A DNA stretch of 64,000 nt from Candidatus Nealsonbacteria bacterium (GTDB lineage Bacteria; Patescibacteriota; Minisyncoccia; Minisyncoccales; RBG-13-42-11): positions 137,316-201,315 of the forward strand of contig JAPLXL010000005.1 in NCBI GenBank assembly GCA_026396115.1, written 5' to 3'. Both the position numbers and the translations under genes were made by a program. Shown in pieces: positions 1,539 to 58,729 of this stretch. Below the pieces are notes generated by a model, which ran no database searches, was not told the DNA's origin, and was given only the letters and a program-made list of their open reading frames with translations. Numbering within the stretch: position 1 is the first letter of the stretch; every line of letters starts with the position of its first letter.

Positions 1539-2583
1539 CAAGTTTTTAAAATTATTTGCTGAAGATATTGCCATTGATTTGGGAACAGCCAATTCTCGTG
1601 TTTATGTTAGAGGCAGGGGAATAGTTATTACCGAACCCTCGGTAGTGGCCGTTAACCAAAAAACCGGTCAGATTTTGGCTATTGGTGAAGAAGCAAAAAA
1701 AATGGTAGGAAGGACTCCGGCCTATATTGTGGCAACCCGACCCCTGGTTTCCGGGGTTATTTCTGATTTTGAGGTAACCGAACAAATGCTCAGATATTTT
1801 ATTGAAAAAGCTCACAAAAAAAGATTTCTTTTAAATCCAAGACCCCGGGTTATTGTTGGCATTCCTTGCGGAGTAACTGAAGTTGAAAGAAAAGCGGTTT
1901 GTGACGCCACTAAAAATGCAGGAGCCAAAGATGTTTTTATTATTGAAGAACCGATGGCCGCAGCCCTTGGCTCTCGTCTACCTATTCAGGAGGCAGGAGG
2001 TAATTTTATTGTTGATATTGGCGGCGGGACAACTGATATTGCCGTAATTTCTTTAGGAGGAATAGTAATATCTAAAACTTTAAGAGTGGCCGGAGATAGA
2101 CTTAATCAAGATGTTATTCAATTTGCCCAAGACAAATATAAATTATTAATTGGAATAAGAACGGCAGAAATGATTAAAATCGGAATAGGATCAGCTTATT
2201 CCTTAAAGGAAAAGAAACAACTTCCAATGCGGGGCAGAAATTTGGTAACCGGTCTTCCTGAAGAAATTTTGGTTTCCAATGAAGACATTAAAACAGCTTT
2301 AGAAAAATCAGTAAAACAAATTGTTAAAGAAATAAAAACGGTTGTAGAAGAAACTCCCCCGGAGTTGCTAGCTGATATTATGGTTTCAGGGATTCAGATG
2401 GTAGGCGGAGGTTCTCTTTTGAAAGGATTAGCTACTTTGATTCAAAAAGAAACAAAAATTCCTACCAAAGTTATTGAAGATCCCACCACAGCTGTTGTCA
2501 GGGGAGCAGGAATGGTGCTTGAAAATCTTGATCAATTACAAGAGGTATTAGTTGAAATCGAAGATTTAGAGCTGCCAAAATAG
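1531..2583 (+). CDS. mreB: Rod shape-determining protein MreB
   Basis: IAIDLGTAN, EPSVVA, IEEPMAAA, VDIGGGTTD motifs. Confidence 0.95.
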   Translation: MFSKFLKLFAEDIAIDLGTANSRVYVRGRGIVITEPSVVAVNQKTGQILAIGEEAKKMVGRTPAYIVATRPLVSGVISDFEVTEQMLRYFIEKAHKKRFLLNPRPRVIVGIPCGVTEVERKAVCDATKNAGAKDVFIIEEPMAAALGSRLPIQEAGGNFIVDIGGGTTDIAVISLGGIVISKTLRVAGDRLNQDVIQFAQDKYKLLIGIRTAEMIKIGIGSAYSLKEKKQLPMRGRNLVTGLPEEILVSNEDIKTALEKSVKQIVKEIKTVVEETPPELLADIMVSGIQMVGGGSLLKGLATLIQKETKIPTKVIEDPTTAVVRGAGMVLENLDQLQEVLVEIEDLELPK

Positions 2584-2638
2584 GCGAAGAGGACTTCGTC
2601 CTCTTCTTTACCTTCGCCCGCCAAGGGCGGGCTCGGTA
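2581..2638 (-). mobile_element. Double-hairpin element copy filling the mreB-gatC spacer
   Basis: TAGGCGAAGAGGACTTCGTCCTCTTC...GCCCGCCAAGGGCGGGCTCGGTA; TA at both ends; begins with the mreB TAG stop. Confidence 0.85.
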
Positions 2639-2639
2639 T

Positions 2640-2930
2640 ATGATTACAAAAAAAGAGTTGCGACGTATCGCAAAATTAGCCAGACTCAGTATAACCAAAG
2701 ATGAGGAAGAGAGGTTTACAAAGGAGCTTTCTTCGATTTTGAATTATGTTGAAAAGTTAAAAGAAGCAGATGTTTCCGGGGTTGAGCCAACCAGTCATCC
2801 ATTTGGTGTTGAAAACGTGATGAGGAGTGATAAAAATAAAAAATTTGCGAAGTCAAAAAAATTATTAGAATTGGCGCCGGAAACCAAAGACGGTTATTTA
2901 AAAGTAAAGTCAATCTTTGAAATAAATTGA
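2640..2930 (+). CDS. gatC: Asp/Glu-tRNA amidotransferase subunit C
   Basis: IAKLARL, ILNYVEKL, VEPTSH, LAPETKDGYLKV; precedes gatA. Confidence 0.93.
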   Translation: MITKKELRRIAKLARLSITKDEEERFTKELSSILNYVEKLKEADVSGVEPTSHPFGVENVMRSDKNKKFAKSKKLLELAPETKDGYLKVKSIFEIN

Positions 2931-3003
2931 AAATTTATTGAAAAGTGAAATGAATTGAAAATTCATTGAACTCAAAGGAGAAATGAATCGAAGATTCATT
3001 GAA
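2918..3003 (+). repeat. Three tandem AT-rich hairpin units (variant of stem-loop 2 of the element family)
   Basis: GAAATAAATTGAAAATTTATTGAA / GAAATGAATTGAAAATTCATTGAA / GAAATGAATCGAAGATTCATTGAA with compensatory stem changes. Confidence 0.75.
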
Positions 3004-3020
3004 CTTTTAGAAGTTGGTTA

Positions 3021-4508
3021 ATGGAACTTACAAATCTCACCATCGCTCAAATACATCAGGGTTTAATAAAAAAAGATTTTTCTGCTTCTGAACTTTGTAA
3101 AACTTTTTTAGATAAGATTAAAGAAAAAAATAAGGAAATTTTTGCCTTTCTGCAGGTTTGCGAAGATTTAGCCTTATCAAAAGCAAAAGAGATTGATGAT
3201 ATGATTTTGGCGGGATACGAGATTCCTTTATTGGCCGGTGTACCTTCGGCTATCAAAGATAATATTTTAGTTGAAAATATTCCTTGTACGGCAGGTTCAA
3301 AAATCCTTGAAGATTATATAGCTCCCTATGATGCCAGAGTGGTTAAGAAACTTAAAGATCAAGGAGTGGTAATTTTAGGAAAAACCAATTTGGATGAGTT
3401 TGCCATGGGTTCTTCTACGGAAAATTCGGCTTTTGGACCGACTCGCAATCCCCTTGATTTAACCAGGGTTCCCGGCGGGTCTTCCGGTGGTTCGGCTGCG
3501 GCCGTGGCAGCCAGATTATCTGTTTTTACATTAGGTTCAGATACCGGAGGTTCAATAAGACAGCCTTCTTCTTTTTGCGGAGTAGTTGGTTTAAAACCAA
3601 CCTATGGCGCAGTATCACGTTATGGGTTAATTGCTTTCGCTTCTTCTTTAGACCAAATAGGCCCTATTGCCAAGACCGTAGAGGACTGCCAGATTGTTTT
3701 TAATGCCATAAAAGGTAAAGATGAAATGGATTCAACCAGTGTGGAGGTTTCAAAAATTGAAAATTATAGGTCAAAGAGGCGTGCCTCTTCTTCACCTCCG
3801 CTGCGGCGTTCGGTAATTGAAAATTTATGCATTGGTGTTCCTAAAGAATATTTTGTCAAAGGTATTAATCCTGAAGTGGAGAGGGTAATTAAGCTAGCAA
3901 TTAAAAAATATGAGGAGATGGGCGCTTATATCAAGGAAATTAGCTTACCGCACACAGAATATGCTTTACCTTGCTATGCCGTAATTTCTTGCCCCGAGGC
4001 CTCGGCAAATCTGGCAAGGTATGACGCCATTAAATATGGTGAAATAAAAAATAAAAAATTAAAAATAAAAAGTTTATTTGATTATTATTTAATTGCCAGA
4101 GGAGAAGGTTTTGGAGCAGAGGTAAGAAGAAGGATAATGTTGGGAACTTATGCCTTGTCTGCGGGCTATTACGAAGCTTACTATTTAAGAGCTCAAAAGA
4201 TAAGAACTTTAATAAAAAATGATTTTGAAAGAGCTTTTAAAGAAGTTGATCTAATTTTTGCCCCGGTTTCTCCTTTCTTACCGTTTAAAATTGGAGAAAG
4301 AATTAATGATCCTCTTTCAATGTATTTGTCTGATATTTATACTGTCTCTGTTAATTTAGTCGGATTTCCCGCTCTTTCTCTGCCAATAGGCAAAGCAGCC
4401 CCCCTTCAAAATGGTGGTGATGGGTTGCCGGTTGGCCTCCAAATTATTGGAAAACCTTTTGAGGAAGATAAAATTTTAGAAATAGGAAAATTATATGCCA
4501 GCAATTGA
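3021..4508 (+). CDS. gatA: Asp/Glu-tRNA amidotransferase subunit A
   Basis: Amidase signature [31 protein letters not shown]. Confidence 0.96.
3767..3815 (-). mobile_element. Double-hairpin element copy, in frame in gatA
   Basis: TAGGTCAAAGAGGCGTGCCTCTTCTTCACCTCCGCTGCGGCGTTCGGTA; flanked by AATTGAAAATT repeats at 3755 and 3815 (60 bp apart). Confidence 0.8.
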
Positions 4509-6422: not shown

Positions 6423-8636
6423 ATGGTATTTTCCTACAATTGGTTACAATCATTTTTTCAAAAAAGACTACCTACTCCTCAAAGATTAGCTGAGCTCTTG
6501 ACTCTTCACTTTGCTGAAGTTGAAGAAATAAAGAAGGTTGGTAGCGACTTTGCTTTAAATATTGATGTCAGGCCCAACCGGGCTTCCGATTGTTTTTCCC
6601 ATATGGGAATTGCCAGAGAAATTTCAGCAATTTGCGGTTTAAAATATCAGAATTTACCCAGTAAATTTAGAGAATTAAAAAACAAAAAAGCTAAAGATTT
6701 TGTTTCAGTAAAATTCAATGAATTTCCAATTCATTTCACCGTGGAGGTAAAAAATAAGAGAGCCTGCCCTCGCTACAGTGCCAAAGTAATCACTGACGTT
6801 AAAGTAGGTCCCTCACCAAAATGGATACAAGATAAATTAAAAGTCTGTGGTTTGAGACCGATCAATAATATTGTTGATATTGCTAATTATGTAATGCTGG
6901 AGACCGGTCAACCCCTACATGCTTTTGATGGTCAAAAGCTTGAAGGTAGAAAAATTATTGTCAGATTCGCCAAGGAAAGGGAAAAGATTATTACTCTGGA
7001 TGAAGAAAAGTATGATTTAGATGAAAATATTTTGGTCATCGCCGATGTTAAAAAACCAGTAGCCATTGCCGGAATTAAAGGCGGAAAACTTCCAGAAATT
7101 GATAAGAAAACAAAAATAGTGGTTTTGGAGTCAGCCAACTTTAATCCTCAAGTTATAAGAAAAGGTTCTAAAAAATTAAATCTCAAAACCGATGCTTCTT
7201 TAAGGTTTGAGCACGGCATAGATCCTAATCTGACAGAATTTGCAATAAATAGGGCAGCTTTTTTAATTCAAAAAATTGCTGAAGGTAAGGTTAGTTACGG
7301 ACTTGTTGATGTTTATAATAAAAAGGTTTTGCCGCAGAGAATCAAATTAGATTTAAATTATGTTGAGAAACTGCTCGGAGTAAAAGTTCCAAAAAAAGAA
7401 ATTAAAAACATTCTAAAAAAGCTGGGATTTCAATGTAAATCTACCAGAGATTCTTATGACGAAGAGGATAAATCCTCTTCTTTACCCTTCGCTGCGGCTT
7501 GGGTTATTGAGGTGCTGGTTCCGACTCGGAGATTAGATATAAGCATTCAGGAAGATTTAATTGAGGAGATAGGCAGAATTTATGGTTATGATAAAATTCC
7601 TTGTACTTCTCCAATATCTTCTTTGTTTCTGCCCCAAAAGAATTTAAATATTTTCTGGGAAGATTTTACCAAAAATATTTTAAAAGAAGCCGGATTTACT
7701 GAAGTTTATAACTATTCATTTTTTGGGGAAGAAGAAGCTAAACTTTTCGGATACCGAGCTTCCGAAGGAAGCGAGGGGGAAGAAAAGGACGAAGTCCTCT
7801 TCGCCCATAAAGAAGAAGAATTAATAGAAGTAGAAAATCCTTTAAGTCAAGAATATAAATATCTAAGGGCTAGTTTAATTCCTAATTTGTTAAAAAATGT
7901 TGAAAAAAATCAAAGATACTTTCCCGAAATGAAAATTTTTGAATTAGGAAAAATTTTCCAACCTCCCGAGCAACAGCGAAGGGGGAAGAAGAAGATTTAT
8001 CTTCTTCGCCCTCCGAAATCTGAAAATAGAATACTTGTTGGAGTAATTACAGGCGACGCTTTTTATGAAGTAAAAGGCGTAGTCGATTTACTTTTAAATA
8101 AATTAGGAATAGCTAATATTTGTAGGTATGATGAATATCCGAATGAATTAAAAAAATCAAAAACCTTCTGGCTACATCCACAAAAATGTGCTGAAATTAA
8201 GGTTGATCACCAAAAAATTGGTCTTTTGGGAGAAGTTTCTCCAAAAATTCTGAGCAGATTGGATATAAAAGAGAGAACGGTTTTGTTCGATATTGATTTT
8301 GAAAAACTTTCTCAATTGGCTTCAGAAGAACATGAATACCGGCCGATTTCTAAATTCCCGTCAGCCGTCAGAGATATAGCGGTTTTAGTCTCGAGAAATG
8401 TAAAAATAGCAGAAGTTCTAAATAAAATTTATGATACTGGCGGAAAGATAATTCGGGATGTTGACCTCTTTGATATTTACGAGGGAGAGGAGATTCCTGC
8501 AGGGAAAAAGAATTTGGCTTTTCATATAATTTATCAGGCCCAGGATCGAACCTTATCTTCGGAAGAGATAGATGAATTACAAAATAAAATAATTAAAATT
8601 CTGGAAAAAAATCCAGAGTGGACTGTGAGAAAATAG
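6423..8636 (+). CDS. pheT: Phenylalanine--tRNA ligase beta subunit, lacking B2 domain, with four element-derived insertions
   Basis: PNRASDCFS, RPINNIVDIANYVMLETGQPLHAFD, DLIEEIGRIYGY, C-terminal FDX-ACB domain. Confidence 0.95.
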   Translation: MVFSYNWLQSFFQKRLPTPQRLAELLTLHFAEVEEIKKVGSDFALNIDVRPNRASDCFSHMGIAREISAICGLKYQNLPSKFRELKNKKAKDFVSVKFNEFPIHFTVEVKNKRACPRYSAKVITDVKVGPSPKWIQDKLKVCGLRPINNIVDIANYVMLETGQPLHAFDGQKLEGRKIIVRFAKEREKIITLDEEKYDLDENILVIADVKKPVAIAGIKGGKLPEIDKKTKIVVLESANFNPQVIRKGSKKLNLKTDASLRFEHGIDPNLTEFAINRAAFLIQKIAEGKVSYGLVDVYNKKVLPQRIKLDLNYVEKLLGVKVPKKEIKNILKKLGFQCKSTRDSYDEEDKSSSLPFAAAWVIEVLVPTRRLDISIQEDLIEEIGRIYGYDKIPCTSPISSLFLPQKNLNIFWEDFTKNILKEAGFTEVYNYSFFGEEEAKLFGYRASEGSEGEEKDEVLFAHKEEELIEVENPLSQEYKYLRASLIPNLLKNVEKNQRYFPEMKIFELGKIFQPPEQQRRGKKKIYLLRPPKSENRILVGVITGDAFYEVKGVVDLLLNKLGIANICRYDEYPNELKKSKTFWLHPQKCAEIKVDHQKIGLLGEVSPKILSRLDIKERTVLFDIDFEKLSQLASEEHEYRPISKFPSAVRDIAVLVSRNVKIAEVLNKIYDTGGKIIRDVDLFDIYEGEEIPAGKKNLAFHIIYQAQDRTLSSEEIDELQNKIIKILEKNPEWTVRK
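6714..6740 (-). mobile_element. AT-variant element fragment, in frame in pheT (FNEFPIHFT)
   Basis: Reverse complement GGTGAAATGAATTGGAAATTCATTGAA matches copies at 2945 and 54022. Confidence 0.7.
7455..7506 (-). mobile_element. Double-hairpin element copy, in frame in pheT (YDEEDKSSSLPFAAAWV)
   Basis: GACGAAGAGGATAAATCCTCTTCTTTACCCTTCGCTGCGGCTTGGGTT. Confidence 0.85.
7752..7807 (+). mobile_element. Double-hairpin element copy, in frame in pheT (RASEGSEGEEKDEVLFAH)
   Basis: TACCGAGCTTCCGAAGGAAGCGAGGGGGAAGAAAAGGACGAAGTCCTCTTCGCCCA. Confidence 0.9.
7965..8010 (+). mobile_element. Double-hairpin element copy, in frame in pheT (EQQRRGKKKIYLLR)
   Basis: CCCGAGCAACAGCGAAGGGGGAAGAAGAAGATTTATCTTCTTCGCC; CCTCC repeats at 7962 and 8010. 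Confidence 0.85.
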
Positions 8637-8640
8637 AATT

Positions 8641-10578
8641 ATGGTGCATAAACCAAAAACAACAAAAAAAGAGTCAACTTACGAGGCAAAAGACATTTAT
8701 GTCTTAGAAGGCCTTGAACCGGTCAGAAAAAGACCGGGAATGTATATTGGTTCCACGGGACCGGAAGGTCTTCATCATTTAATTTGGGAGTGCGTTGATA
8801 ATAGTTTAGATGAGGCAATGGCTGGCTACGCTAAAAACATTGAACTAATTCTTTTGCCCGGGAATAAAGTTAAAACAACTGATGATGGTAGGGGAATTCC
8901 AGTTGAAAAGCATCCTCAAACGAAAAAATCTGCCCTGGAAACGGTAATGACTACCCTTCATGCCGGAGCAAAATTCGGCGGTAAGGCCTATCAAGTAGCC
9001 GGCGGACTTCATGGGGTTGGAGTTTCGGTGGTTTGTGCTCTTTCAAAATGGATGAGAGTCGAAGTTTGTCGCAACGGTATCCGTCATTGGCAGGAATATG
9101 TGAGAGGAAAAGCCATAACAAAAGTAAAGAAAGGTGAAAGATGCAGACAAATCGGCACCTCGGTTTATTTTGAGCCTGACCCCGAAATTTTCAGCGATAT
9201 TAAATTTGATTTAAAGAAAATTTTAAATCATCTTCGTCAGCAGGCCTATTTAAGCAAAAAAGTAAAAATTATCGTTGTTGACCAGAGAGAAAAACCGGAC
9301 AAATCCTACACTTTTTATTTTGAGGGAGGACTTGCATCTTATGTTAAACATTTAACCAGGGGAGCAGTAAAACGTCATCCGAATATTTATTATGGTTCGG
9401 GAGAGAAAAATGGAATGTTGATTGAGTCCGCTTTTCAATATACCGAAGAATACGAATATTTTGAGGAAAGTTTTGCCAACAATATTTATACTGGCGAAGG
9501 CGGGACGCATTTAACCGGCTTTAGAACCGCCCTGACGAGAACTTTTAATGATTATGCTAAGAAAAATAGTCTTTTAAAGAATAACGATGACAATTTATCG
9601 GGAGAAGATGTCAGAGAAGGGTTTAGCGGCGTAATTTCGGTAAAATTGAAAGATCCTCAATTTGAAGGTCAAACAAAGGCAAAATTAGGAAATCAGGAGG
9701 CAAAAACAGCGGTTGAGACAATAGTTTCTGAAACCCTGTCAGATTTTTTAGAAAGAAATCCTCAAGACGCCCGGGCAATTATTGAAAAATGCATTCTTTC
9801 TTCAAGAGCCAGGAAAGCAGCCAAGGTTGCCAGAGACACTGTTTTAAGAAAAGGTATCTTGGAAGGATTAGCTTTGCCCGGTAAATTGGCTGATTGTACT
9901 TCAAAAAAACCGGAAGAATCAGAACTTTATATTGTTGAAGGGGAGAGTGCCGGAGGTTCAAGCCGCCAAGCCAGAGATAGAAGGTTTCAGGCGATTCTGC
10001 CTTTGAGAGGAAAAATTTTAAATGTTGAGAGGGCACGATTGGATAAGATTTTGTCTTCAAAAGAAATAAGGTCTTTAATCATTGCTTTAGGAACAGCGAT
10101 CGCCGAAGATTTTAATATAAAAAAAGCCAGATATCATCGGATTATCATAATGACTGATGCCGACGTTGATGGTTCGCATATCAGGACTCTTCTTTTAACT
10201 CTTTTTTACCGTTATTTTAGACCTCTTATTGAAGCAGGTTTTTTATATATCGCCCAACCGCCTCTTTATCGTATTCAGGTCGGGAAAAAAATAGAATATG
10301 CTTATAGCGAGGAAGAAAAAAATAAAATTTTAGAAAAAATAAAAAAAGAAAGGACAATTGGTTTATCTCTTCAAAGATATAAAGGTTTGGGAGAAATGAA
10401 TTCCGACCAGTTGTGGGAAACTACCATGAATCCGGAAAAAAGAGTGTTTTTGAAAGTAAATATTGAAGAAGCGAAAGAAGCGGATAGAATTTTTGATATT
10501 TTAATGGGAGATGAAGTTCTGCCTCGAAAGAAATTTATCCAAGCACACGCTAAGAAAGTCAAGAATTTAGACGTGTAA
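8641..10578 (+). CDS. gyrB: DNA gyrase subunit B
   Basis: VRKRPGMYIG, DDGRGIP, GGLHGVG, EGESAGG, PLRGKILN, MTDADVDG, QRYKGLGEM. Confidence 0.93.
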   Translation: MVHKPKTTKKESTYEAKDIYVLEGLEPVRKRPGMYIGSTGPEGLHHLIWECVDNSLDEAMAGYAKNIELILLPGNKVKTTDDGRGIPVEKHPQTKKSALETVMTTLHAGAKFGGKAYQVAGGLHGVGVSVVCALSKWMRVEVCRNGIRHWQEYVRGKAITKVKKGERCRQIGTSVYFEPDPEIFSDIKFDLKKILNHLRQQAYLSKKVKIIVVDQREKPDKSYTFYFEGGLASYVKHLTRGAVKRHPNIYYGSGEKNGMLIESAFQYTEEYEYFEESFANNIYTGEGGTHLTGFRTALTRTFNDYAKKNSLLKNNDDNLSGEDVREGFSGVISVKLKDPQFEGQTKAKLGNQEAKTAVETIVSETLSDFLERNPQDARAIIEKCILSSRARKAAKVARDTVLRKGILEGLALPGKLADCTSKKPEESELYIVEGESAGGSSRQARDRRFQAILPLRGKILNVERARLDKILSSKEIRSLIIALGTAIAEDFNIKKARYHRIIIMTDADVDGSHIRTLLLTLFYRYFRPLIEAGFLYIAQPPLYRIQVGKKIEYAYSEEEKNKILEKIKKERTIGLSLQRYKGLGEMNSDQLWETTMNPEKRVFLKVNIEEAKEADRIFDILMGDEVLPRKKFIQAHAKKVKNLDV

Positions 10579-10670
10579 TATATAGTTCTTAGCGTGTCGA
10601 AAAGAGCTTTAGCTCGCAAAAAAGGTTAAAAACCTTGACGTTTAGCCATCTTTCGGTTAACATTTGAAAC

Positions 10671-10871
10671 ATGAACATAGCAAATATTCCAAACAAAGTC
10701 ATCACTTTCTTAAAAGAGGTTAGGATGGAAATGAGAAAAGTTAATTGGCCGACCAAAGAAGAAACCATAAAATATACTTTGATTGTTATTGGAATTTCGG
10801 TTGTTGTGGCTATATTTTTGGGTGGCTTTGATATTTTATTCACCACCTTACTGGAGAGGTTTGTAATCTAA
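10671..10871 (+). CDS. secE: Preprotein translocase subunit SecE
   Basis: FLKEVRMEMRKVNWPT plus one TM helix; precedes nusG. Confidence 0.93.
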   Translation: MNIANIPNKVITFLKEVRMEMRKVNWPTKEETIKYTLIVIGISVVVAIFLGGFDILFTTLLERFVI

Positions 10872-10915
10872 AGAGCGAGCCCGTAAGGGCGAGCGATTAA
10901 TTTTGTATTACCACT

Positions 10916-14516: not shown

Positions 14517-15842
14517 ATGAAACTTTCTAAAACCGATCTTAAAATTTACGTTTTAATCAAAAAAGAAATTCAGCGCCAAAAAGATGGCTTGGTTTTGATT
14601 CCTTCGGAAAATTACGCCAGCCCGGCCGTACTCTCTAGCATGGGTACGCCTTTAAGCAATAAGTATTCCGAAGGTTATCCAAAAAAGCGATATTACGGCG
14701 GCAATGAATTTATTGACCAAATTGAACAAATTGCTATTGACCGGGCAAAAAAATTATTTAAAGCAGAACATGCCAACGTTCAACCGCATTCCGGTTCTCA
14801 GGCAAATGCCGCAGTCTATCTGGGTTTATTAAATTACCGCGATAAAATTTTGGGAATTGATTTGTCAGCCGGCGGACATTTGACTCACGGCTCTCCGGTT
14901 AATTTTTCGGGTAAATTATATAAATTTGCTTATTATGGAGTTAATCCAAAAACAGAAAGGGTTGACTTGAAAGAAGTAGAAAAAATCGCCCTCAAGTTTA
15001 AGCCAAAGCTAATTATTATCAGCACTACTTCTTATTCAAGGACCCTTAATTTTAAGGCCTTCCGAAAAATTGCCGATAAAGTTGGAGCTTACTTGATGGC
15101 AGACATTGCCCATATTGCCGGTTTGGTGGTAACCGGTCTTCATCCTCACCCTTTTCCTTATTGCGATGTGGTTACCACCACCACTCACAAAACCTTAAGA
15201 GGCCCTCGTGGCGGATTAATATTGTCTAAAATCAAAGATAGATTGGATGCAAAAGGAAAACTCAATTTAGCTCAAAAAATTGATAAAGCTGTTTTTCCGG
15301 GGACGCAGGGAGGACCCTTAGATCATGTTATTGCTGCCAAAGCCGTTTGCTTTTTGGAAGCAATGAAACCTACTTTCAAAAAATATCAAAAGCAGATACT
15401 TATTAACGCCAAAGCTATGGCTGATGAATTCATAAAACAGGGGATAAGAGTGGTTAGCTGTGGCACAGACAACCATTTAATGGTCATCGACGTTTCTCCT
15501 TTTGGAGACAGTTCTAAAAGAATCCAGGACGAATTGGATAAAGTTGGAATTTATGTTAATCGCAACTCCATTCCGTTTGATAAAAGACCGCCCTATAATC
15601 CTTCGGGCATCAGATTGGGATCACCGGCCATTACCAGCCGGGGATTAAAAGAAAAAGAGTGCCGATATATTGTGCGACTGATTGTCAGATTAATAAAAAA
15701 TATTAACAACCAAGAAATTAAAAACCGAGCCCCACGTCAGTGGAGCGAAGGTGGAAAAGAGAACGAAGTTCTCTTTGACATAAAAAAAGAAGTTAGCAGA
15801 ATTACAAAAAAATTCCCCATCTATGCGGATTTTCAATGGTAA
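14517..15842 (+). CDS. glyA: Serine hydroxymethyltransferase
   Basis: LIPSEN, NKYSEGYP..RYYGG, GGHLTHG, TTTTHKTLRGPRGG. Confidence 0.97.
   Translation: MKLSKTDLKIYVLIKKEIQRQKDGLVLIPSENYASPAVLSSMGTPLSNKYSEGYPKKRYYGGNEFIDQIEQIAIDRAKKLFKAEHANVQPHSGSQANAAVYLGLLNYRDKILGIDLSAGGHLTHGSPVNFSGKLYKFAYYGVNPKTERVDLKEVEKIALKFKPKLIIISTTSYSRTLNFKAFRKIADKVGAYLMADIAHIAGLVVTGLHPHPFPYCDVVTTTTHKTLRGPRGGLILSKIKDRLDAKGKLNLAQKIDKAVFPGTQGGPLDHVIAAKAVCFLEAMKPTFKKYQKQILINAKAMADEFIKQGIRVVSCGTDNHLMVIDVSPFGDSSKRIQDELDKVGIYVNRNSIPFDKRPPYNPSGIRLGSPAITSRGLKEKECRYIVRLIVRLIKNINNQEIKNRAPRQWSEGGKENEVLFDIKKEVSRITKKFPIYADFQW
15724..15779 (+). mobile_element. Double-hairpin element copy, in frame near the glyA 3' end (RAPRQWSEGGKENEVLFD)
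   Basis: ACCGAGCCCCACGTCAGTGGAGCGAAGGTGGAAAAGAGAACGAAGTTCTCTTTGAC. Confidence 0.85.
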
Positions 15843-16746
15843 AAAAGAAGCTGAAAAAATCTTATTGGATTTAGGAAAAAGAATATCTAAAGAAAAACTT
15901 AAGCCTAAATTAGCCGTAATCCTGGTTGGCGAGGATAAAGCATCGAGGCTCTACATAAAATTAAAAAGAAAAGCGGCCAAAAAAATTAGTATAAAATTAG
16001 TTCTTTATAAGTTCAAAGAAGCCACAGTAGAAGAAAAAATTATTCAAAAAATAAAAACTTTAAACAATAATTCTTCAATTCATGGAATTATTGTTCAATT
16101 ACCTCTTCCTAAAAAATTCAACCAGAATAAAATTGTCGGGGCGGTAAATCCCAAAAAAGACGTTGACGGTTTTCAAAAAAACGGTTGGTTTCTGCCGGTA
16201 TTGCCTTCGGCAATTTTATTTACTATTAAAAAGGCAATGAAAACATCTTTCAAAAAAAAGAAGGTCGTGGCACTGGTAAATTCAAAGATTTTCGGGCAAA
16301 GGCTTAAATCTTTTTTTAAAAAAGAGGGAATAGAATTAGATTATATTTTAAGGAAAAAGCATTCTTTTACCGAGCTTCCGAGGGAAGCGAGCTCGAAGAA
16401 CATTCATTCTTCTCGACCCTTCGCTGCGACTCGGGTAGATGAAGAAGAAGATTTTATCTCTTCGACTTTTGAAAATAAAAATAAATTGAAAAGGGCAGAT
16501 ATTATTATTACAGTTTTGGGTTCCCCCAATGCAATTTGGGGTGATATGATAAAGAAGAAGGCAATTTTAATTGACGCCGGCATTAGTAAAATTGCAGCAA
16601 AAAAAGTGGTTGGCGACGTAAATAGAGAAAGCGTAAAAGAAAAAGCAGCTTTCTTAACTCCGGTACCAGGCGGCATCGGCCCCTTAACGGTCGCTTTATT
16701 ATTAAAAAACGTTTATTATGCGGCAAAATATAGCCAAGTTAATTGA
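15823..16746 (+). CDS. folD: Methylene-THF dehydrogenase/cyclohydrolase (divergent)
   Basis: HGIIVQLPLP, KDVDGF, GDV, TPVPGGIGPLTVA. Confidence 0.9.
   Translation: MRIFNGKKEAEKILLDLGKRISKEKLKPKLAVILVGEDKASRLYIKLKRKAAKKISIKLVLYKFKEATVEEKIIQKIKTLNNNSSIHGIIVQLPLPKKFNQNKIVGAVNPKKDVDGFQKNGWFLPVLPSAILFTIKKAMKTSFKKKKVVALVNSKIFGQRLKSFFKKEGIELDYILRKKHSFTELPREASSKNIHSSRPFAATRVDEEEDFISSTFENKNKLKRADIIITVLGSPNAIWGDMIKKKAILIDAGISKIAAKKVVGDVNRESVKEKAAFLTPVPGGIGPLTVALLLKNVYYAAKYSQVN
16368..16466 (+). mobile_element. Nested pair of element copies, in frame in folD
   Basis: Forward copy TACCGAGCTTCCGAGGGAAGCGA...GATGAAGAAGAAGATTTTATCTCTTCGAC interrupted by a reverse copy at ~16393-16437. Confidence 0.85.
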
Positions 16747-22869: not shown

Positions 22870-22897
22870 TGTTATATTATACTACCTTTAGTGTATT

Positions 22898-26351: not shown

Positions 26352-26353
26352 CA

Positions 26354-43307: not shown

Positions 43308-43380
43308 TACCGAGCTTTCACGGATGAAAGCGAAGGTGAAAATGAAGGCAAACTTCGCAGAAGGAAAACTTCATCGCCTA
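43308..43380 (+). mobile_element. Element copy abutting the trmD start codon, hairpin 2 internally duplicated
   Basis: TACCGAGCTTTCACGGATGAAAGCGAAGGTGAAAATGAAG...CTTCATCGCCTA(TG). Confidence 0.85.
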
Positions 43381-44064: not shown

Positions 44065-44119
44065 TACCGAAATGAATCGCAGTTCATTGAAGGTTGAAAT
44101 AAATCAAAGATTCATTGAA
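44065..44119 (+). mobile_element. AT-variant full element copy just upstream of tRNA-Tyr
   Basis: TACCGA-AATGAATCGCAGTTCATT-GAAGGTTGA-AATAAATCAAAGATTCATT-GAA. Confidence 0.7.
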
Positions 44120-44121
44120 TC

Positions 44122-44206
44122 GGGTGCGTGGTGGAGTAGCTAACACACCACTCTGTAAAAGTGGCGCCTTCGGGCTTCGCAGGTGCAATTCCTGCCGCAC
44201 CCACCA
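44122..44206 (+). tRNA. tRNA-Tyr (GTA)
   Basis: GGGTGCG/CGCACCC acceptor, CCACT-CTGTAAA-AGTGG, long variable arm, encoded CCA. Confidence 0.9.
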
Positions 44207-46831: not shown

Positions 46832-46956
46832 AAAAGACAGCTTGGCAGAGCCAGGCAAAATAGTCGATTTTCTGGATTTCAGAAAGAGAGAATCGCAGAA
46901 TTAAAGGTCGGAAGAATTTTTAGTTTTATTAGTTTTACTTGTTAAAATTAACACTT

Positions 46957-47280
46957 ATGGCAAAAGCAACTATTGACAAAGAATTTCTTGAATACATTAT
47001 TAAAGGCCTAGTTGACTACCCCGATGATGTAAAAGTTGAAAGAAAAGTTGACGAGATGGGTGTTTTGCTCAGTTTGAAAGTCAACTCCGAAGATATGGGT
47101 CAGATTATCGGAAAGGAAGGTTCAACTGCTCGGGCAATAAGAAACCTTATTAGAATTGTAGGTCTCAAAAATCATGCCCGGGTTAACTTAAAGATTGAAG
47201 AACCAGAAGGCAGAGTAGCTGAAGTAAGAAAAGCTCCTGCCCGAAAGAAAGAAAGCGATTTGGATAGTTTAAATCTTTAA
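46957..47280 (+). CDS. khpA: KH-domain RNA-binding protein KhpA, copy 2 (start ATG 46957)
   Basis: DKEFLEYIIKGLVDYPDDV, DMGQIIGKEGSTARAIR; close paralogue of 42939. Confidence 0.9.
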   Translation: MAKATIDKEFLEYIIKGLVDYPDDVKVERKVDEMGVLLSLKVNSEDMGQIIGKEGSTARAIRNLIRIVGLKNHARVNLKIEEPEGRVAEVRKAPARKKESDLDSLNL

Positions 47281-47354: not shown

Positions 47355-47427
47355 GCCTGGGTAGCTCAGTTGGCAGAGCACGTCTTTGGTAAAGACGAGG
47401 TCGCCGGTTCAATCCCGGCCTCAGGCT
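47355..47427 (+). tRNA. tRNA-Thr (GGT)
   Basis: GCCTGGG/CTCAGGC acceptor, CGTCT-TTGGTAA-AGACG, GGTTCAATCCC. Confidence 0.92.
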
Positions 47428-47472
47428 CCCGAGCGATAGTAAAGAGGAGAGAAGAGAATTTATCCTCTACGA
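47428..47472 (+). mobile_element. Degenerate element copy directly at the tRNA-Thr 3' end
   Basis: CCCGAGCGATAGTAAAGAGGAGAGAAGAGAATTTATCCTCTACGA. Confidence 0.65.
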
Positions 47473-47485
47473 ACTCATAAAAAAT

Positions 47486-47750: not shown

Positions 47751-49298
47751 ATGAACAAAAAGATAATTTTAATAATCATTATCATTATTTTGGTAACCTT
47801 TGGCGTTTATCGAGTTTTTTTAAAAGAAAAAAAACCTGAGTTTAATTTGATTGAGGTGGTTCGGGGAGACATCGTCCAAGAAATTTTTGAAAGCGGCCAA
47901 GTTGGAAGGGGAGAAAAAATAAACCTTATCTTTGAAAACGCCGGAAAAATTGAAAAAATTTATGCCGGGGTGGGCGATGAGGTTAAGGCTGGCCAGGAAT
48001 TGGCAAAGCTGGACACCAGCAATCTTTATATTCAGCTTCAGGATGTTCAAACCGGCCTTGAATTAGCTCAACTAAACTTAAATAAGTTATTGGCCGGTGC
48101 CGGTCCGGAAGAAATTAAAATTACTGAAACCCAACTGGAAAACGCCGAAATTACCTTAGGGATTGCCAAAGAAAATTTAAAAAATAGCTATGAAACAGCC
48201 ATAACTGTTTCAGATGGTTCTTATCCTCAAATTTATAACGCTCTAGATTTTGTAAAAGAATTTGTCGGAGAATACATTAATATCTATGACGAAGACGGTA
48301 GAACAATAATGCGTGCCAGAGATGAAATAGAAAGAGCAGAAGCGGAAGCAAAACTTTATTTAGGGATTGCAAAAAATAATTTAAACAATGATAAAAATAT
48401 TGAAACTGCTCTTTTAATAATGAAAAACTCTCTTGAGACAGCTTTTGACAGCTTAGAAACAATCCGTGAAATTGCCGATAAATCAGCTATTTATCGAGAA
48501 AGAGTTTCGGCAGCTGACAAGGCTTCTTTGGATACCCTGAAAACAAATATTAATGGAGCCCTGACTAATGTTATTGGCGTCCAACAAACAATCTCTTCAA
48601 TGAAATCAAACGTTGAGACGGCGCAAACAAAACTTCAAGAGGCTGAGAGCCGTTTAGATTTAATCAAAGCCGAAGTCCGCCAAGTGGATATTGATTTGTC
48701 TGAAGCCCAGATAAGACAAGCTCAAACCCGGGTACAATTTTACGAAAATCAAATTCAGCAATCAAAACTTATCAGTCCGGCTGCCGGCAAAATCATTGAA
48801 ATTAAAAAGAGAATCGGGGAATTGGTTCAGCCGACCTCGCAGGACGTTGTCATCGTTGTTTTGCCCATCGCCCCTTATGAAATAAAAGTAGACATTTACG
48901 AGGAAGACGTGATTGAAATAAGCGTCGGCAATTCGGTTGAAATTACTTTGGTTGCCTTTCCGGATAAAAAAATTGAAGGGAGGGTTATCTCAATAAGTCC
49001 GGCAGAAAAAATAGTTGACGGCGTGGTTTATTATGAAACAACTATTGGTTTTGAAGAAATGCTCAAGGCGATAAAGCCCGGCATGACCGCAGACGTTATT
49101 ATTCAAGCTGATTTAAAAGAAAATGTTCTGATTATTTCCAGAGATGCAATTCAAGAAAAAGATGACAAAACAATAGTTGAAGTTTTTAAAAATGGGCAGA
49201 TTCAGGAAAGAGATATTGAAATTGGATTGAGGGGGAGCAACGATATGGTAGAAGTGCTTTCCGGTCTTGAAGAGGGAGAAAAAGTAATTCAAAGATAG
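47751..49298 (+). CDS. Efflux membrane-fusion (adaptor) protein, MacA/HlyD-like
   Basis: N-terminal TM, lipoyl half motifs (GKIEKIYAGVGDEVKAGQ, ISPAAGKI), long coiled coil, KPGMTA, GLEEGEKV. Confidence 0.85.
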   Translation: MNKKIILIIIIIILVTFGVYRVFLKEKKPEFNLIEVVRGDIVQEIFESGQVGRGEKINLIFENAGKIEKIYAGVGDEVKAGQELAKLDTSNLYIQLQDVQTGLELAQLNLNKLLAGAGPEEIKITETQLENAEITLGIAKENLKNSYETAITVSDGSYPQIYNALDFVKEFVGEYINIYDEDGRTIMRARDEIERAEAEAKLYLGIAKNNLNNDKNIETALLIMKNSLETAFDSLETIREIADKSAIYRERVSAADKASLDTLKTNINGALTNVIGVQQTISSMKSNVETAQTKLQEAESRLDLIKAEVRQVDIDLSEAQIRQAQTRVQFYENQIQQSKLISPAAGKIIEIKKRIGELVQPTSQDVVIVVLPIAPYEIKVDIYEEDVIEISVGNSVEITLVAFPDKKIEGRVISISPAEKIVDGVVYYETTIGFEEMLKAIKPGMTADVIIQADLKENVLIISRDAIQEKDDKTIVEVFKNGQIQERDIEIGLRGSNDMVEVLSGLEEGEKVIQR

Positions 49299-49343
49299 TC
49301 GAAGAACGTTTGTTCTTCTCCACCCTTCGCTGCGGCTCGGGTG
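49296..49343 (-). mobile_element. Element copy beginning at the TAG stop of the adaptor gene
   Basis: TAGTCGAAGAACGTTTGTTCTTCTCCACCCTTCGCTGCGGCTCGGGTG. Confidence 0.85.
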
Positions 49344-52371: not shown

Positions 52372-53427
52372 ATGAGGAAGCGTTTATTTTTTATTATCTT
52401 AATAATTATGATTGCTGCGATTTCTTTCTGGTTGATTTTTTTGCCAACAGAATCTTTCTCCAAAAAAGAGGTAATTTTTAGCGTGGAAATAGGAGAAGGG
52501 TCAAAAGACATTGCCCTGAACTTGGCAAAAGAAAATTTGATAAGATGGGCGTCAATGTTCAGAGTTTATGTTATGGTAAGAGGAATTGCCGGAGACCTTA
52601 AAGCCGGCCAATACCTATTGTCTCCTTCAATGAATATTCCCCAGATAGCAGAGAAACTTTTTAAGGGCGATGTAATAAAAGAAAAAATTACCATAATTGA
52701 GGGGTGGAGTTTGAGAACCATCGGTTTTTATTTTGAAGACAGGGGAATGTTCCAGGCCGAAGAAGTTTTGGACATGGCTGCCAAAGATTTTTCTGACGAG
52801 TTTGACTTTTTGAAAGATAAGCCAAAGAATTTAGGGTTGGAAGGTTATCTTTTCCCCGACACCTATGAGATAAGAAAAAATGAGAGTTTGGAAAATATCG
52901 TCAAAAAAATGCTAAGCAATTTTGACAGGAAATTAACATCCGATTTAAAGGAAGAAATCAAAAGGCAGCAAAAATCAATTTTTGAAATAGTGACAATGGC
53001 CAGCATCTTGGAAAAAGAAGTCAGAACTGTTGAGGATAAAAAGATTGTCTCCGGAATTTTCTGGAAAAAAATCAATAATGGTGAGCCGTTATATAGTTGT
53101 GCGACAATAGCTTATATTTTAGGAAGAGAAAATTGGACGTTCGAAGAAGATGAATCTTCTTCTCTCTCCCGCGTTGGCGCTTGGACGTTCGAAGAAATGA
53201 GAAGAGAAATTGCTTCGGGAAAAGATATTGATTCGCCTTATAATACATATAAATATCAGGGTCTTCCTCTGGGTCCCATTTCCAACCCCGGGCTTGAAAG
53301 CATAATGGCTACAATCTATCCCGAAGAGAGCGATTACCGGTATTATTTATCCACTCCTGAAGGAGAAACTATTTTTAGTAAAACCTTGGAAGAGCATAAT
53401 ATAGCCAAGGCAAAATATTTTGAGTAG
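52372..53427 (+). CDS. mltG: Endolytic transglycosylase MltG (start re-assigned to ATG 52372)
   Basis: TM anchor, TIIEG, LEGYLFPDTY, MASILEKE, SPYNTY..GLPLGPISNPG. Confidence 0.92.
   Translation: MRKRLFFIILIIMIAAISFWLIFLPTESFSKKEVIFSVEIGEGSKDIALNLAKENLIRWASMFRVYVMVRGIAGDLKAGQYLLSPSMNIPQIAEKLFKGDVIKEKITIIEGWSLRTIGFYFEDRGMFQAEEVLDMAAKDFSDEFDFLKDKPKNLGLEGYLFPDTYEIRKNESLENIVKKMLSNFDRKLTSDLKEEIKRQQKSIFEIVTMASILEKEVRTVEDKKIVSGIFWKKINNGEPLYSCATIAYILGRENWTFEEDESSSLSRVGAWTFEEMRREIASGKDIDSPYNTYKYQGLPLGPISNPGLESIMATIYPEESDYRYYLSTPEGETIFSKTLEEHNIAKAKYFE
53141..53185 (-). mobile_element. Degenerate element copy, in frame in mltG, between 16-bp direct repeats
   Basis: GAAGAAGATGAATCTTCTTC hairpin; TTGGACGTTCGAAGAA at 53133 and 53181 (WTFEE twice). 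Confidence 0.75.
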
Positions 53428-53489
53428 GCGAAGAGGATAAATCCTCTTCTTCACTTTCACTTTCACTTTCGCTACGCGAAAGCTCGGTA
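53425..53489 (-). mobile_element. Element copy filling the mltG-pfpI spacer
   Basis: TAGGCGAAGAGGATAAATCCTCTTC-(TTCACT)x3-TTCGCTACGCGAAAGCTCGGTA; starts at the mltG TAG stop. Confidence 0.88.
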
Positions 53490-53490: not shown

Positions 53491-54036
53491 ATGCCAAACT
53501 TACAAGAGAAAAAAATTGCGATAATCATTGCCTTTCGGGATTTTCGGGACGAAGAATATTTTACTCCAAGAGAAATTTTAGAGAAAGCCGGGACTGAAAT
53601 AAAAACCGTCTCAAACAAAATTGGAACTGCTATTGGCGCCGATGGGGGAGAAGTTGAGATTGACTTTTTAGTTTCTGAATTAAATTCGGCTGATTTTGAT
53701 GCAGTGATTTTTATTGGCGGGTCGGGATGCCTGAAAAATCTTGATAATGAAGATTCATACAAGATAGCGAGAGAAGCGGTCTCTCAAGATAAAGTTCTGG
53801 GAGCTATTTGTATTGCGCCAACAATTTTAGCCAAAGCCGGAGTCCTGTCCGGCAAAAAAGCGACGGTCTGGACAAGCCCGATGGATAAGTCAGCCGTTAA
53901 AATTTTAAAAGACAATGGAGCGGTTTTTGAGGATAATCCGGTGGTGGCAGACGGAAAAATTATTACGGGTTCTGGCCCTGAATCCGCCGAAGAATTTGCC
54001 ATGAAAATCATTGGACTCGAAGGTGAAATGAATTGA
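53491..54036 (+). CDS. DJ-1/PfpI family protein
   Basis: FRDEEY, FDAVIFIGGSG, GAICIAP..LA.AG, VVADGKIITG.GP. Confidence 0.9.
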   Translation: MPNLQEKKIAIIIAFRDFRDEEYFTPREILEKAGTEIKTVSNKIGTAIGADGGEVEIDFLVSELNSADFDAVIFIGGSGCLKNLDNEDSYKIAREAVSQDKVLGAICIAPTILAKAGVLSGKKATVWTSPMDKSAVKILKDNGAVFEDNPVVADGKIITGSGPESAEEFAMKIIGLEGEMN

Positions 54037-54049
54037 AAATTCATTGAGC
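54016..54049 (+). mobile_element. AT-variant element fragment supplying the DJ-1/PfpI C-terminus and TGA stop
   Basis: CTCGAAGGTGAAATGAATTGAAAATTCATTGAGC. Confidence 0.7.
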
Positions 54050-54089
54050 TCTTGACAGGAATTTAAATTGATATAATATTAAAACATAT

Positions 54090-54721: not shown

Positions 54722-54779
54722 TACCGAGCTTTCGCGTAGCGAAAGCGAAGGTGAAGAAGAGGACGAAGTCCTCTTCGCC
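54722..54779 (+). mobile_element. Best-preserved element copy (reference), rplJ-rplL spacer
   Basis: TACCGA-GCTTTCGC-GTA-GCGAAAGC-GAAGGTGAA-GAAGAGGAC-GAA-GTCCTCTTC-GCC. Confidence 0.92.
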
Positions 54780-54796
54780 ATCTAATTTTTAAACTT

Positions 54797-55784: not shown

Positions 55785-55832
55785 TAGTCGAAGAGATAAA
55801 TCTCTTCTTCACCTTTCATTGCGATTCGGGTA
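55785..55832 (-). mobile_element. Element copy inserted into the downstream direct repeat
   Basis: TAGTCGAAGAGATAAATCTCTTCTTCACCTTTCATTGCGATTCGGGTA. Confidence 0.88.
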
Positions 55833-57075: not shown

Positions 57076-58005
57076 TTAACCAAATAATTTTCCTTGATTG
57101 TTTAATTTGATTTTCTTCCTCTGCCGGCTTTCTCGCTCCTGAACAACTGGCCTTATTTTTTTAAAAGCATCTTCCATGGCCCGATAAATTCTGTCTTTTC
57201 TCCCTTCCTCTAAATACTTTGACAATTTAGCTAAACGCTGAATTTCCCGGGACTTTACTCTTTTTAGATAAGGCATAACTTTTATGGATAAAAGTCCGGC
57301 CAAAAGATTGTTTTTGCCTCCGGAAATTTCACTGACGATTCGCTTTAATCTTTCGTTTTTTACTCCTTCTTGCAGTTCCTTTAAAAATTTAGCTAGTCTT
57401 TGATAAACCAAGACAAAAATCCTCTCTATTCTAAGCTTTTCCTCAATCAATTTCCGGGTTCTTAATATTATCCCCCAATTTATTTCTTCAATTTCATTTA
57501 ATCTTTCGAATAAATCAACCGTAGCTTTACTAGTTTCAATTGGCACTTTTCCAGATTTTCCCCCCTTTTTATTCTTAAGCGGTGGTATCTGCTTCAATCT
57601 TGTTTGGGCTTTTGCTTTAAATTTATTGGTCACCCGACCAATTTCTGCCTGACATTTTTGAAAAGATAAGCGAATAGAGTATTGTTCTGCTTGGCTTAGT
57701 TCCTGGGGCTCTAAAAATTTAGCAGTAACTTCTTGAAGGATTTTGATTACTTTACTTAATTCCTGAATCTCTCCTGGCAGGAGCAGCTTTTCTTTTCCAA
57801 TTTGAACACTCAATCCCTGATATTGATCAATTATGTGTGTTCCTTGCCTTATGGCATCATTAATATCCTGGAGAACATTTTCAATTGAATTTGGTTTTTC
57901 GCCCCAAAAAATTCGTAGCTTCCCTTCTTTATCAACTAAGATTTTCCGGCTGATTCTCTGAACTATTTCAAAATCAACTTTCAAGTTCTTCATTTTAATC
58001 ATCAC
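57076..58005 (-). CDS. Hypothetical basic helical protein
   Basis: 309-aa ORF with SD-like AAGGAAGGTG and upstream promoter. Confidence 0.65.
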   Translation of the reverse strand: MMIKMKNLKVDFEIVQRISRKILVDKEGKLRIFWGEKPNSIENVLQDINDAIRQGTHIIDQYQGLSVQIGKEKLLLPGEIQELSKVIKILQEVTAKFLEPQELSQAEQYSIRLSFQKCQAEIGRVTNKFKAKAQTRLKQIPPLKNKKGGKSGKVPIETSKATVDLFERLNEIEEINWGIILRTRKLIEEKLRIERIFVLVYQRLAKFLKELQEGVKNERLKRIVSEISGGKNNLLAGLLSIKVMPYLKRVKSREIQRLAKLSKYLEEGRKDRIYRAMEDAFKKIRPVVQERESRQRKKIKLNNQGKLFG

Positions 58006-58041
58006 CTTCCTTAAATAATATTTTTTAAAAAACTGATATTA

Positions 58042-58070
58042 ACTATAAAAGATATTTGGCTAATTGTCAA
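58042..58070 (-). promoter_or_regulatory. Putative sigma70 promoter
   Basis: TTGACA-17 bp-TATAGT on - strand. Confidence 0.65.
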
Positions 58071-58091
58071 TTTTTTGATAGAATAAAATAT

Positions 58092-58718
58092 ATGACAACC
58101 TATACGTTTATTGATGCTTCAAATCTTTTTTATGGCGGAGAGAAAAGCTTGGGATGGAAAATAGATTATCAAAAACTTCTCAACTATTTGAAAGAGAAGT
58201 ATTTGATATCCAAAGCTTTGTATTTCGGTGGGGTTGAAATACGTAATTTTGAATTTAACTACCTTGAAAATGAAACAGTTCCTATTTATGAACTTGAAAA
58301 ATATTTAGTCGACGTAATTAAAAATAAAGCAAATAAATTAAACGAAGCAGAATTATTACTTATCGGGCGCCATTTGCAAAGAGTGCGTTTTTACTTGAAG
58401 TTAAAAGAATTTGGTTATGAATTACATCTTAAGCCGGTAAAATTATATGAACAAGAAGATGGAACAACAAGAAGGAAAGCCAATTGTGATGTTGAGATGA
58501 CTTTCTATCTAATGAAAGAGAAAGATAATTTTGACCGCGCTATTATTTTATCTGGCGATGGGGACTTCTTGCCAGTTTTAAAGCATTTAAGAAATCAAGG
58601 GAGAGAAATTATTATATTAGCCCGTGGTCCACGAACCGCAAAAGAGATACGCCAATTCGCTGCTGCTAAGTTCAGAGATTTTGAATATTTGAAATATAGA
58701 TTAAAGTACGAAGAATAA
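58092..58718 (+). CDS. NYN-domain (LabA/DUF88, PIN-like) protein (start ATG 58092)
   Basis: FIDASN, IDY.KL, KANCDVEM, LSGDGDF.PV. Confidence 0.88.
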   Translation: MTTYTFIDASNLFYGGEKSLGWKIDYQKLLNYLKEKYLISKALYFGGVEIRNFEFNYLENETVPIYELEKYLVDVIKNKANKLNEAELLLIGRHLQRVRFYLKLKEFGYELHLKPVKLYEQEDGTTRRKANCDVEMTFYLMKEKDNFDRAIILSGDGDFLPVLKHLRNQGREIIILARGPRTAKEIRQFAAAKFRDFEYLKYRLKYEE

Positions 58719-58729
58719 AATTCTTCGCC
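58709..58729 (+). mobile_element. Right-end fragment of the element overlapping the NYN gene stop
   Basis: CGAAGAATAAAATTCTTCGCC, like the end of the copy at 22819. Confidence 0.55.

Follow-up and report, generated by a model that had tools for sequence, protein, structure and literature searches.

A repeat of about 50 bases that folds as two hairpins is scattered through a 64,000-nucleotide stretch of Candidatus Nealsonbacteria bacterium (assembly GCA_026396115.1, contig JAPLXL010000005.1, positions 137,316 to 201,315, hereafter the window), with copies lying both between genes and in frame within conserved protein genes. This two-hairpin repeat is very probably a non-autonomous mobile element, whatever the enzyme that moves it. 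Our analysis further suggests, at a probability of roughly 0.5, that it would be mobilized in trans by an HUH-type single-strand cut-and-join reaction, of the kind used by IS200/IS605 elements and by transposases associated with repetitive extragenic palindromic (REP) sequences (RAYTs), passing through an end-to-end circle.

To determine the number of copies, a profile was grown from 26 strict seeds and searched against the 792-kb genome (G000), with the reversed genome as a control. This gave 253 matches at E ≤ 0.01 and 293 at E ≤ 0.1, with no profile matches in the reversed genome, and about 275 two-hairpin copies remained once opposite-strand overlaps had been removed. Such copies make up 1.6% of the genome, with 119 inside open reading frames (ORFs), 112 intergenic and 44 at ORF edges; those inside ORFs are in sense (66) and antisense (53) orientation, and 85 of the 728 simply called ORFs carry the element. 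Within the window, 22 loci were identified by whole and half profiles (control 0) and six further partial or variant loci were read by eye, which agrees with the approximately 28 loci claimed by a first-pass annotation made from the sequence alone. Its estimate of one locus per 2 kb was slightly high, the density being about one per 2.3 kb in the window and one per 2.9 kb genome-wide. No family of Rfam 15 matched above its gathering threshold (at the reference copy nothing better than E 1.5 was returned), supporting the earlier view that this is not a described family, and no description of this family was found in the literature searched, subscription journals and ISfinder lying outside that search.

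Each unit begins with (A/T)CC(C)GA and continues through a first hairpin, having a GA/GAA internal loop and closed by GG(G)T, to a purine linker, a second hairpin and a right end of the form TYG-HC-Y. Every parsed unit terminates in TYG, an end filter having been applied. Units are 45–60 bases in length and occur as a short and a long type, the modal lengths among 282 distinct full copies being 48 (n = 95), 57 (63), 54 (46) and 58 (22). Terminal inverted repeats are lacking, as had been claimed, with the two ends of these copies pairing at no more than 6 of 10 bases. The TA that had been taken as the start of the element was not upheld; in the reference copy (54723–54780) the first inserted base is the A of ACC (54723) and the T before it belongs to the host, which means that TA is not element sequence and does not represent a duplication either. 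At its other end the inserted unit takes in one base beyond the terminal GCC. There is also a related unit, designated variant B, with AATGAA/TTCATT as the stem of its second hairpin, which is often arrayed without the first hairpin (39 pattern matches in G000, control 0).

The reference copy folds as two hairpins at -17.9 kcal/mol as DNA (z = -5.5), with none of 200 shuffles folding as well. In an alignment of 131 distinct copies, 11 of 14 pairs were changed on both sides, giving a covariation score of 0.299 compared to 0.126 for shuffles and at most 0.091 when slid, although this alignment was fitted to the model and the result thus leans in its favor. The top strand gave the better fold in 210 of 230 copies, with 41 G-T mismatches vs. 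23 A-C. Loops of the cGNAg type are extra-stable in DNA. Such triloops cap 43 of 52 first hairpins and 25 of 53 second hairpins, with the complementary form found in 0 and 4, respectively. Given the cGNAg triloops of one strand and the lack of transcription-strand bias among copies within ORFs, the substrate would appear to be single-stranded DNA (ssDNA). The element also folds stably as RNA.

Mobility is indicated by comparison with close relatives. Where metagenome contigs of 81–94% nucleotide identity depart from the window, entire units are gained or missing, and relatives with 81–98% local nucleotide identity have clean empty sites, which supports the earlier reading of the copies as lineage-specific insertions of a non-autonomous element. 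Each of the three full units of pheT is cleanly missing in one to three of four close relatives, while in contig L037 a second unit is nested inside the first. The pheT gene of L037 also possesses a different, 39-nt C-rich in-frame insertion at window position 6981. Genome G021 has 51 matches in 38 loci and its congener G008 has none, with empty sites seen. When 191 non-tandem copies were tested, a gap-free empty site was located elsewhere for 26 and none was obtained for the other 165. Of these empty sites, 19 have TYR (Y, pyrimidine; R, purine) at -6 to -4, seven have zero junction ambiguity and 16 have at most one ambiguous base. As gap-free empty sites include such zero-ambiguity junctions, target duplication is not obligatory and insertion is precise. 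Duplication of TA or of a fixed 2 bp was rejected for the long type from the junction and empty-site analysis.

The host flanks of 230 non-tandem copies have T at -6 in 94–95% and Y at -5 in 97–100%. TYR precedes 113 of 138 long and 62 of 92 short copies, compared to a background of 7.7%, and is separated from the junction by three variable host bases; the element's own right end carries the same motif at the same distance. At +1/+2 the host is enriched for the first bases of the element itself (AC 26 vs. 8.7, TC 31 vs. 13.8). The target therefore resembles the element's end-to-end junction, which accounts for its tandem arrays and nesting (25 left-tandem and 28 right-tandem copies of 282). 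No complementarity of the flanks was seen that would indicate a palindromic or hairpin target. Across three genomes, 38 of 177 parsed copies stand 2 nt before an ATG of the other strand, the proportion in G000 being 14 of 34 for intergenic copies vs. 3 of 54 for those in ORFs. On the other strand, an ATG with A as its next base includes the target motif, and this can explain the copies found beside start codons.

In-frame insertion into proteins, a central claim of the first-pass annotation, was borne out. In G000, lengths divisible by three (3n) were found for 56 of 57 parsed copies in ORFs of at least 200 aa (48 ORFs), compared to 37 of 52 (71%) outside ORFs; for copies in ORFs elsewhere the counts were 12 of 12 in G055 and 7 of 10 in G021. 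ORFs hold 77% of target motifs but only 43% of copies, an under-use that purifying selection predicts. Both orientations and all six frames occur, more than the several frames previously reported, and the peptides quoted at that time are present in the ORF translations. Gene names used here are by recognition, with PheT and GatB confirmed against solved structures and FolD by the names of homologs. Of 65 distinct PheT homologs, 56 are without an element match and nine have one; two PheT loops have been hit in both orientations, and the same loops have been hit independently. FolD homologs at 92–94% aligned identity lack the insert, and in two others a second site is occupied by inserts. In a structural model of FolD (mean predicted local distance difference test score, pLDDT, 89.4) the only segment below 50 is formed by residues 182–200, within the 33-codon insert, whose last part is modeled as a helix extension. 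The insert is accordingly predicted to be a disordered loop; the model of PheT was too poor for use (mean pLDDT 53). Judging from the open frames the inserts would be translated, and dozens of proteins are predicted to gain short flexible loops from the copies, with the peptides probably being near-neutral passengers.

An HUH-type reaction is the preferred explanation because the hairpin ends are asymmetric, one strand folds, no duplication is obligatory and the target is mirrored by the right end. In IS200/IS605 elements there is likewise no obligatory duplication, and the motif 5' of the left end resembles the right end. By such a route the top strand would fold as ssDNA and the enzyme would cut 3 nt after TYR, both at the right end and at the left junction. 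The two ends would then join into a small circle, whose junction would be transferred into a look-alike host site, TYR-NHH/WC (slash at the junction). With a perfect target at the end of every copy, tandem arrays and nesting would be expected. Insertion would take no account of genes, and the only survivors would be 3n, stop-free readings in tolerant loops.

Several observations weigh against this explanation. The motif lies 3 nt from the junction, when in IS200/IS605 the target motif directly abuts the cut, and the circle is a postulated step. TYR is absent from 7 of the 26 empty sites, and 10 of the 26 have two or more ambiguous bases. Among the 92 short-type copies, 39 have both junction bases in common with the host, where 18 would be expected and shuffles reached 32 at most; this would also be compatible with a 2-bp core or a duplication. 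IS200/IS605 elements have a lagging-strand orientation bias, but that of the two-hairpin element is inconsistent, at 39 of 80 in a one-contig genome, 98 vs. 123 in G000 and 12 vs. 32 in G021. No Y1 gene or remnant was found in G000, nor a Y1 gene in G013 or G017, and of the 26 other genomes that bear the element such a gene is present in only 12. Among 64 Y1 loci inspected, 34 of them from genomes chosen as element-bearing, one was bracketed by the element and two had a one-sided copy. The bracketed locus (L385 1100–2114) is a RAYT-like gene, matching Y1_Tnp above and REP_Tyr_transpos below cut-off, between two near-identical outward copies of the element. However, none of the 30 closest homologs of this gene is bracketed by the element; they have different perfect palindromes instead, and the copies of L385 sit within the gene's own palindromic repeat, at a TYR site. 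On these two grounds the L385 copies are probably cargo. The locus hints, without showing it, that a RAYT-linked process is able to duplicate the unit.

A search for other candidate genes was also undertaken. G000 has no match to Y1_Tnp, DUF559, IS110, reverse transcriptase, TnpB or the four-helix-bundle IVP, so the HUH/Y1 (TnpA, RAYT) or reverse transcriptase gene with the same ends that the first-pass annotation had suggested seeking did not materialize there. Y1 genes are frequent in the order (179 of 401 genomes), and the Y1/RAYT-like genes of the candidate phyla radiation (CPR) are mostly flanked on both sides by a short perfect palindrome of their own (L421–L450, L372–L390), which differs between protein subgroups. 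The ORFs that are flanked on both sides by the element in G000, G021 and G055 were found to be ordinary genes. A 112-aa uncharacterized gene common to three positive genomes did not track the element (33 of 101 genomes), and neither did DprA/competence (82 of 101). The element-free G008 has no match to the dprA, comM, yraN, small GIY-YIG and Y1 genes of its congener G021 (C3 136138–138929). Small GIY-YIG genes, examined in overlapping sets of 22, 30 and 30 loci, were not bracketed by the element and had other hairpins instead. One of these, an 82-aa stand-alone GIY-YIG gene (L011 1380–1749; L321–L326), has a nested tandem-GA hairpin with crossing complementarity upstream, and its relatives at 71–89% identity occur in other families of the order, several beside an apparent tRNA end. 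Other small GIY-YIG genes with short inverted ends lie directly before a start codon (L029, L348, L418, L015, L026).

Much of the evidence on target and junction could also be read as the work of a recombinase or nuclease of another class (IS110-, serine- or tyrosine-recombinase-like), making a conservative exchange between the end-to-end junction and a look-alike host site over a 0–2 bp core. This we regard as rather unlikely. The target does resemble the element's junction on both sides, the short type shares its junction dinucleotide with the host (CT/CT in 18 and TA/TA in 17 of the 92), and the presence of the element follows certain families of the order, as would suit a host-encoded enzyme. 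However, the long type has no shared core (both junction bases equal to the host's in 23 of 138, 20 expected) and the target is not palindromic. As to the enzymes themselves, IS110 has no match in G000, G021 or G055, the single tyrosine recombinase present was rejected as it also occurs in the element-free G008, and a large serine recombinase as G021 has no resolvase match. A different use of the hairpin, which appears decidedly improbable, would involve a small GIY-YIG nuclease of the Ssn type binding it and nicking ssDNA a few bases away, with host repair copying the element in. The bottom-strand geometry is similar to that of SsnA as described in PMC11893778, and small GIY-YIG genes are present in G000, G021, G017 and G013 and absent from G008, but the wider comparison gave no clear co-occurrence (such genes being present in 17 of the 25 genomes rich in the element and in 37 of the 76 others). 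The SRM motif is found in 0 of 282 copies, the strand with the GNA loops is the top strand, no inspected small GIY-YIG gene is bracketed by the element and hydrolytic nicking alone would leave the precise joints unexplained.

Spread via an RNA copy, or via template switching of a polymerase that is primed where there is microhomology to the element's end, is very unlikely. The stable RNA fold would suit it, as would several bases of microhomology at some sites and a long direct repeat at the mltG copy, but conservation lies at -6 to -4 and not at the junction-adjacent bases that a primer needs, reverse transcriptase has no match in G000, G021, G017 or G055, and the lack of transcription-strand bias in ORFs speaks against it also. 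Slighter still is the likelihood that copies are kept for use by the host, either as translation or transcription signals before starts or as functional peptides. It is to this that the copies 2 nt before an ATG, with their excess in intergenic positions, and the independent hits in the same PheT loops would lend themselves. Start-codon sites are however expected from the target motif itself, gain and loss between near relatives is clean, with a congeneric genome having none, and all six frames are used while ORF sites are under-used. A final proposal, which we consider unlikely, is that the element may depend on an undescribed chemistry of single-strand transposition, in which a 3-base motif is recognized, the cut is made three bases from it and the joint is scarless, with a unit length of 48–57 nt shaped to 3n.

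With regard to known repeats, the closest parallel in behavior is with the Rickettsia palindromic elements (RPEs), which are described in PMC2229807 as long stem-loops of 105–150 bp with terminal inverted repeats, and of which 44 copies were first reported (reviewed in PMC2229807, PMC10969869). Both are hairpin repeats found in frame in conserved proteins as well as in intergenic DNA and RNA genes (for the two-hairpin element, the 23S rRNA gene of L253), and for both the mobilizer is not identified. Going by the descriptions of RPEs, the element is set apart from them by its length of 45–60 nt, two unrelated hairpins, asymmetric ends, approximately 275 copies in 0.8 Mb, use of all six frames and a defined target motif. 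In L253, two identical copies (1201–1255 and 2053–2107) lie in two identical insertions of one 23S rRNA gene.

IS200/IS605 transposition is described in PMC8266576 as single-stranded and strand-specific with palindromic ends. These elements and their non-autonomous derivatives with hairpin ends are like the two-hairpin element in that the hairpins at the two ends are asymmetric, a single strand is preferred, target duplication is not obligatory and the motif lying beyond the left end has its mirror within the right end. Unlike theirs, its motif stands off from the junction by 3 nt and has a strength of only about three bases, its replication-strand bias is inconsistent, no cognate TnpA was found (G000; 64 Y1 loci), and it is far smaller and tolerated in frame. 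Like REP sequences, bacterial interspersed mosaic elements (BIMEs) and their RAYTs, as presented in PMC8266576 and PMC3733652, it has hundreds of short hairpin copies, in clusters and with some intragenic, and RAYT-like genes are common in its order. In contrast to REP/BIME, there are two hairpins per unit arranged head-to-tail and not as inverted pairs, perfect palindromes of a different sequence accompany the local RAYTs, and no conserved tag occurs at the hairpin foot (GTAG-type in 36 and CGTC-type in 1 of 282 copies). Cleavage by RAYTs takes place at CT or CA. According to PMC11893778, SsnA is guided by three bases at the foot of the stem and cuts ssDNA on the 5' side of its hairpin, the distance being short and constant, and the NTS repeats are rarely found in genes (2%). 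The element resembles the NTS/SRM repeats with Ssn in being an oriented, high-copy ssDNA hairpin repeat whose boundary and motif are separated by a short, constant distance, but 43% of its copies are in genes, compared to the 2% given there for NTS, and the degenerate SRM motif has a single match in the whole of G000. Patescibacteria, Parcubacteria and Nealsonbacteria do not appear in 12 of the 14 supplements of that paper. Unlike a classical MITE, or miniature inverted-repeat transposable element, of the IS630/TA type, a model that is not supported, the element has neither terminal inverted repeats nor TA duplication, no duplication being obligatory. The element thus works like RPEs, yet it does not fit the definitions of RPE, REP, SRM or MITE.

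The wider scan that the first-pass annotation had proposed was carried out with a covariance model on 101 genomes from the family and order, and 25 of these were found to hold at least 15 copies. Any match at all was obtained in 62 of the 101, many of them single and weak (scoring upper limit near 55). A strict pattern was found in 34 of 401 genomes of the order (control 0), and 150 other genomes sampled across the phylum yielded one strong single copy and one weak match. Among the best 80 of 87 matching stretches in a species collection, 56 hold the element as judged by eye and 24 are without the second hairpin; the 56 records are titled Nealsonbacteria, Parcubacteria, Paceibacter, Minisyncoccales, 'Saccharibacteria' or plain 'bacterium'. 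Viral contigs had no pattern match and no RAYT relative. In a search of sequencing runs, the matches listed were 20 DNA runs in 14 studies and no RNA run. The element was found almost only in one CPR order, in Nealsonbacteria/Paceibacter-type records.

The copies of the window are as follows, with strand in parentheses; loci with stated lengths were identified by profile and parse unless otherwise indicated. A full long-type unit (2582–2637, -) is located between the mreB stop and a downstream ATG, with its left end 2 nt before the ATG of the other strand, and is absent in L038. It is followed by a variant-B array read by eye (2926–3008, +), of which L037 has one unit fewer. The gatA copy (3769–3814, -) had been presented as an in-frame unit; the ORF is open, but the unit parses as 46 nt, not 3n, and the net insertion is not fixed. 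Of the four units claimed for pheT three are full, namely a 48-nt short-type unit (7457–7504, -) with an empty site in L038 and the nested unit in L037, a 54-nt long-type unit (7753–7806, +) that is empty in L037, L039 and L040, and a 48-nt short-type unit (7964–8011, +) that is empty in L039 and L040. The fourth (6711–6750, -), read by eye, proved to be a variant-B half unit and is 33 nt shorter in L044. A 57-nt unit near the 3' end of glyA (15724–15780, +) is absent in L044. The folD insert (16369–16467, +) is a 99-nt composite of two interleaved opposite-sense units, equal to 33 codons and absent in close homologs P0004 and P0005. In gatB there are tandem and nested units (18626–18785, +), corresponding to a gap against the solved GatB and 123 nt shorter in L044, as well as a 45-nt unit (19289–19333, +).

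Two 48-nt units (21630–21677 and 21882–21929, both -) lie in the miaB-miaA ORF, a single 684-aa ORF (20202–22256) that by recognition resembles miaB fused to miaA, and these are followed by a 51-nt intergenic unit (22820–22870, +). The unit claimed for the 542-aa ORF is present, though as a first hairpin only (24114–24150, -, by eye). In thrS a 54-nt unit (25976–26029, -) encodes a peptide of 18 letters, and a degenerate unit whose end is approximate (26311–26385, +) is found 2 nt before the thrS ATG of the other strand. A 48-nt unit (32295–32342, +) was confirmed in the 860-aa ORF previously labeled as a pilin protein, but the pilin match of this ORF is weak and below cut-off, and it also has a match to Peptidase_C39_2. 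Further units include one whose second hairpin is enlarged, immediately ahead of the likely trmD start (43309–43379, +, profile and parse), variant-B units before a tRNA gene (44075–44124, +, by eye), a 48-nt degenerate unit at a tRNA 3' end (47427–47474, +) and a 46-nt intergenic unit (49297–49342, -). A 48-nt degenerate unit in mltG (53140–53187, -) is atypical in having a direct repeat of about 14 nt on both sides; across this insert (53135–53190) the repeat places WTFEE twice in the protein, unlike other copies. A 63-nt unit (53426–53488, -) fills the gap from the mltG stop to the next ATG. The remaining copies are a variant-B unit at the end of a 181-aa ORF (54004–54053, +, by eye), the 58-nt long-type reference unit between rplJ and rplL (54723–54780, +), a short-type intergenic unit (55787–55832, -, profile and parse) and a second hairpin with right end only, over the stop of a NYN-domain ORF (58700–58730, +, by eye).

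A number of other features of the window were observed. A 67-nt duplication of the gyrB 3' end (10545–10612) and a short GC-rich hairpin before nusG (10866–10905) are both absent in L039 and L044, with L038 having a full element at the latter position. Two similar small ORFs (42939–43250 and 46939–47280) share 76% identity over 236 nt. Short AT-rich periodic stretches (3021–4508 and 29535–30209) give K/I/N/L-rich peptides in gatA and an RNase H-like ORF, and these may represent another repeat family.

CPR genomes are seen as streamlined, and yet 1.6% of this one consists of a selfish 50-mer carried by about one in nine called ORFs. How repeats of the RPE and REP type spread is a long-standing question, and the exact junctions, target motif and preferred strand described here provide oligonucleotide substrates for a direct enzyme test. 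Inserts of this kind can disturb start-codon calls, marker-gene alignments and assemblies of such genomes. The filled and empty alleles of PheT, FolD and GatB map loops that tolerate 16–50 residues and would exemplify the origin of new peptide sequence in non-coding DNA. If the undescribed chemistry were true, the element would represent a minimal natural system for scarless peptide insertion and would offer a handle on RPE- and REP-like spread, with its 3n unit length allowing it to live and multiply inside essential genes.

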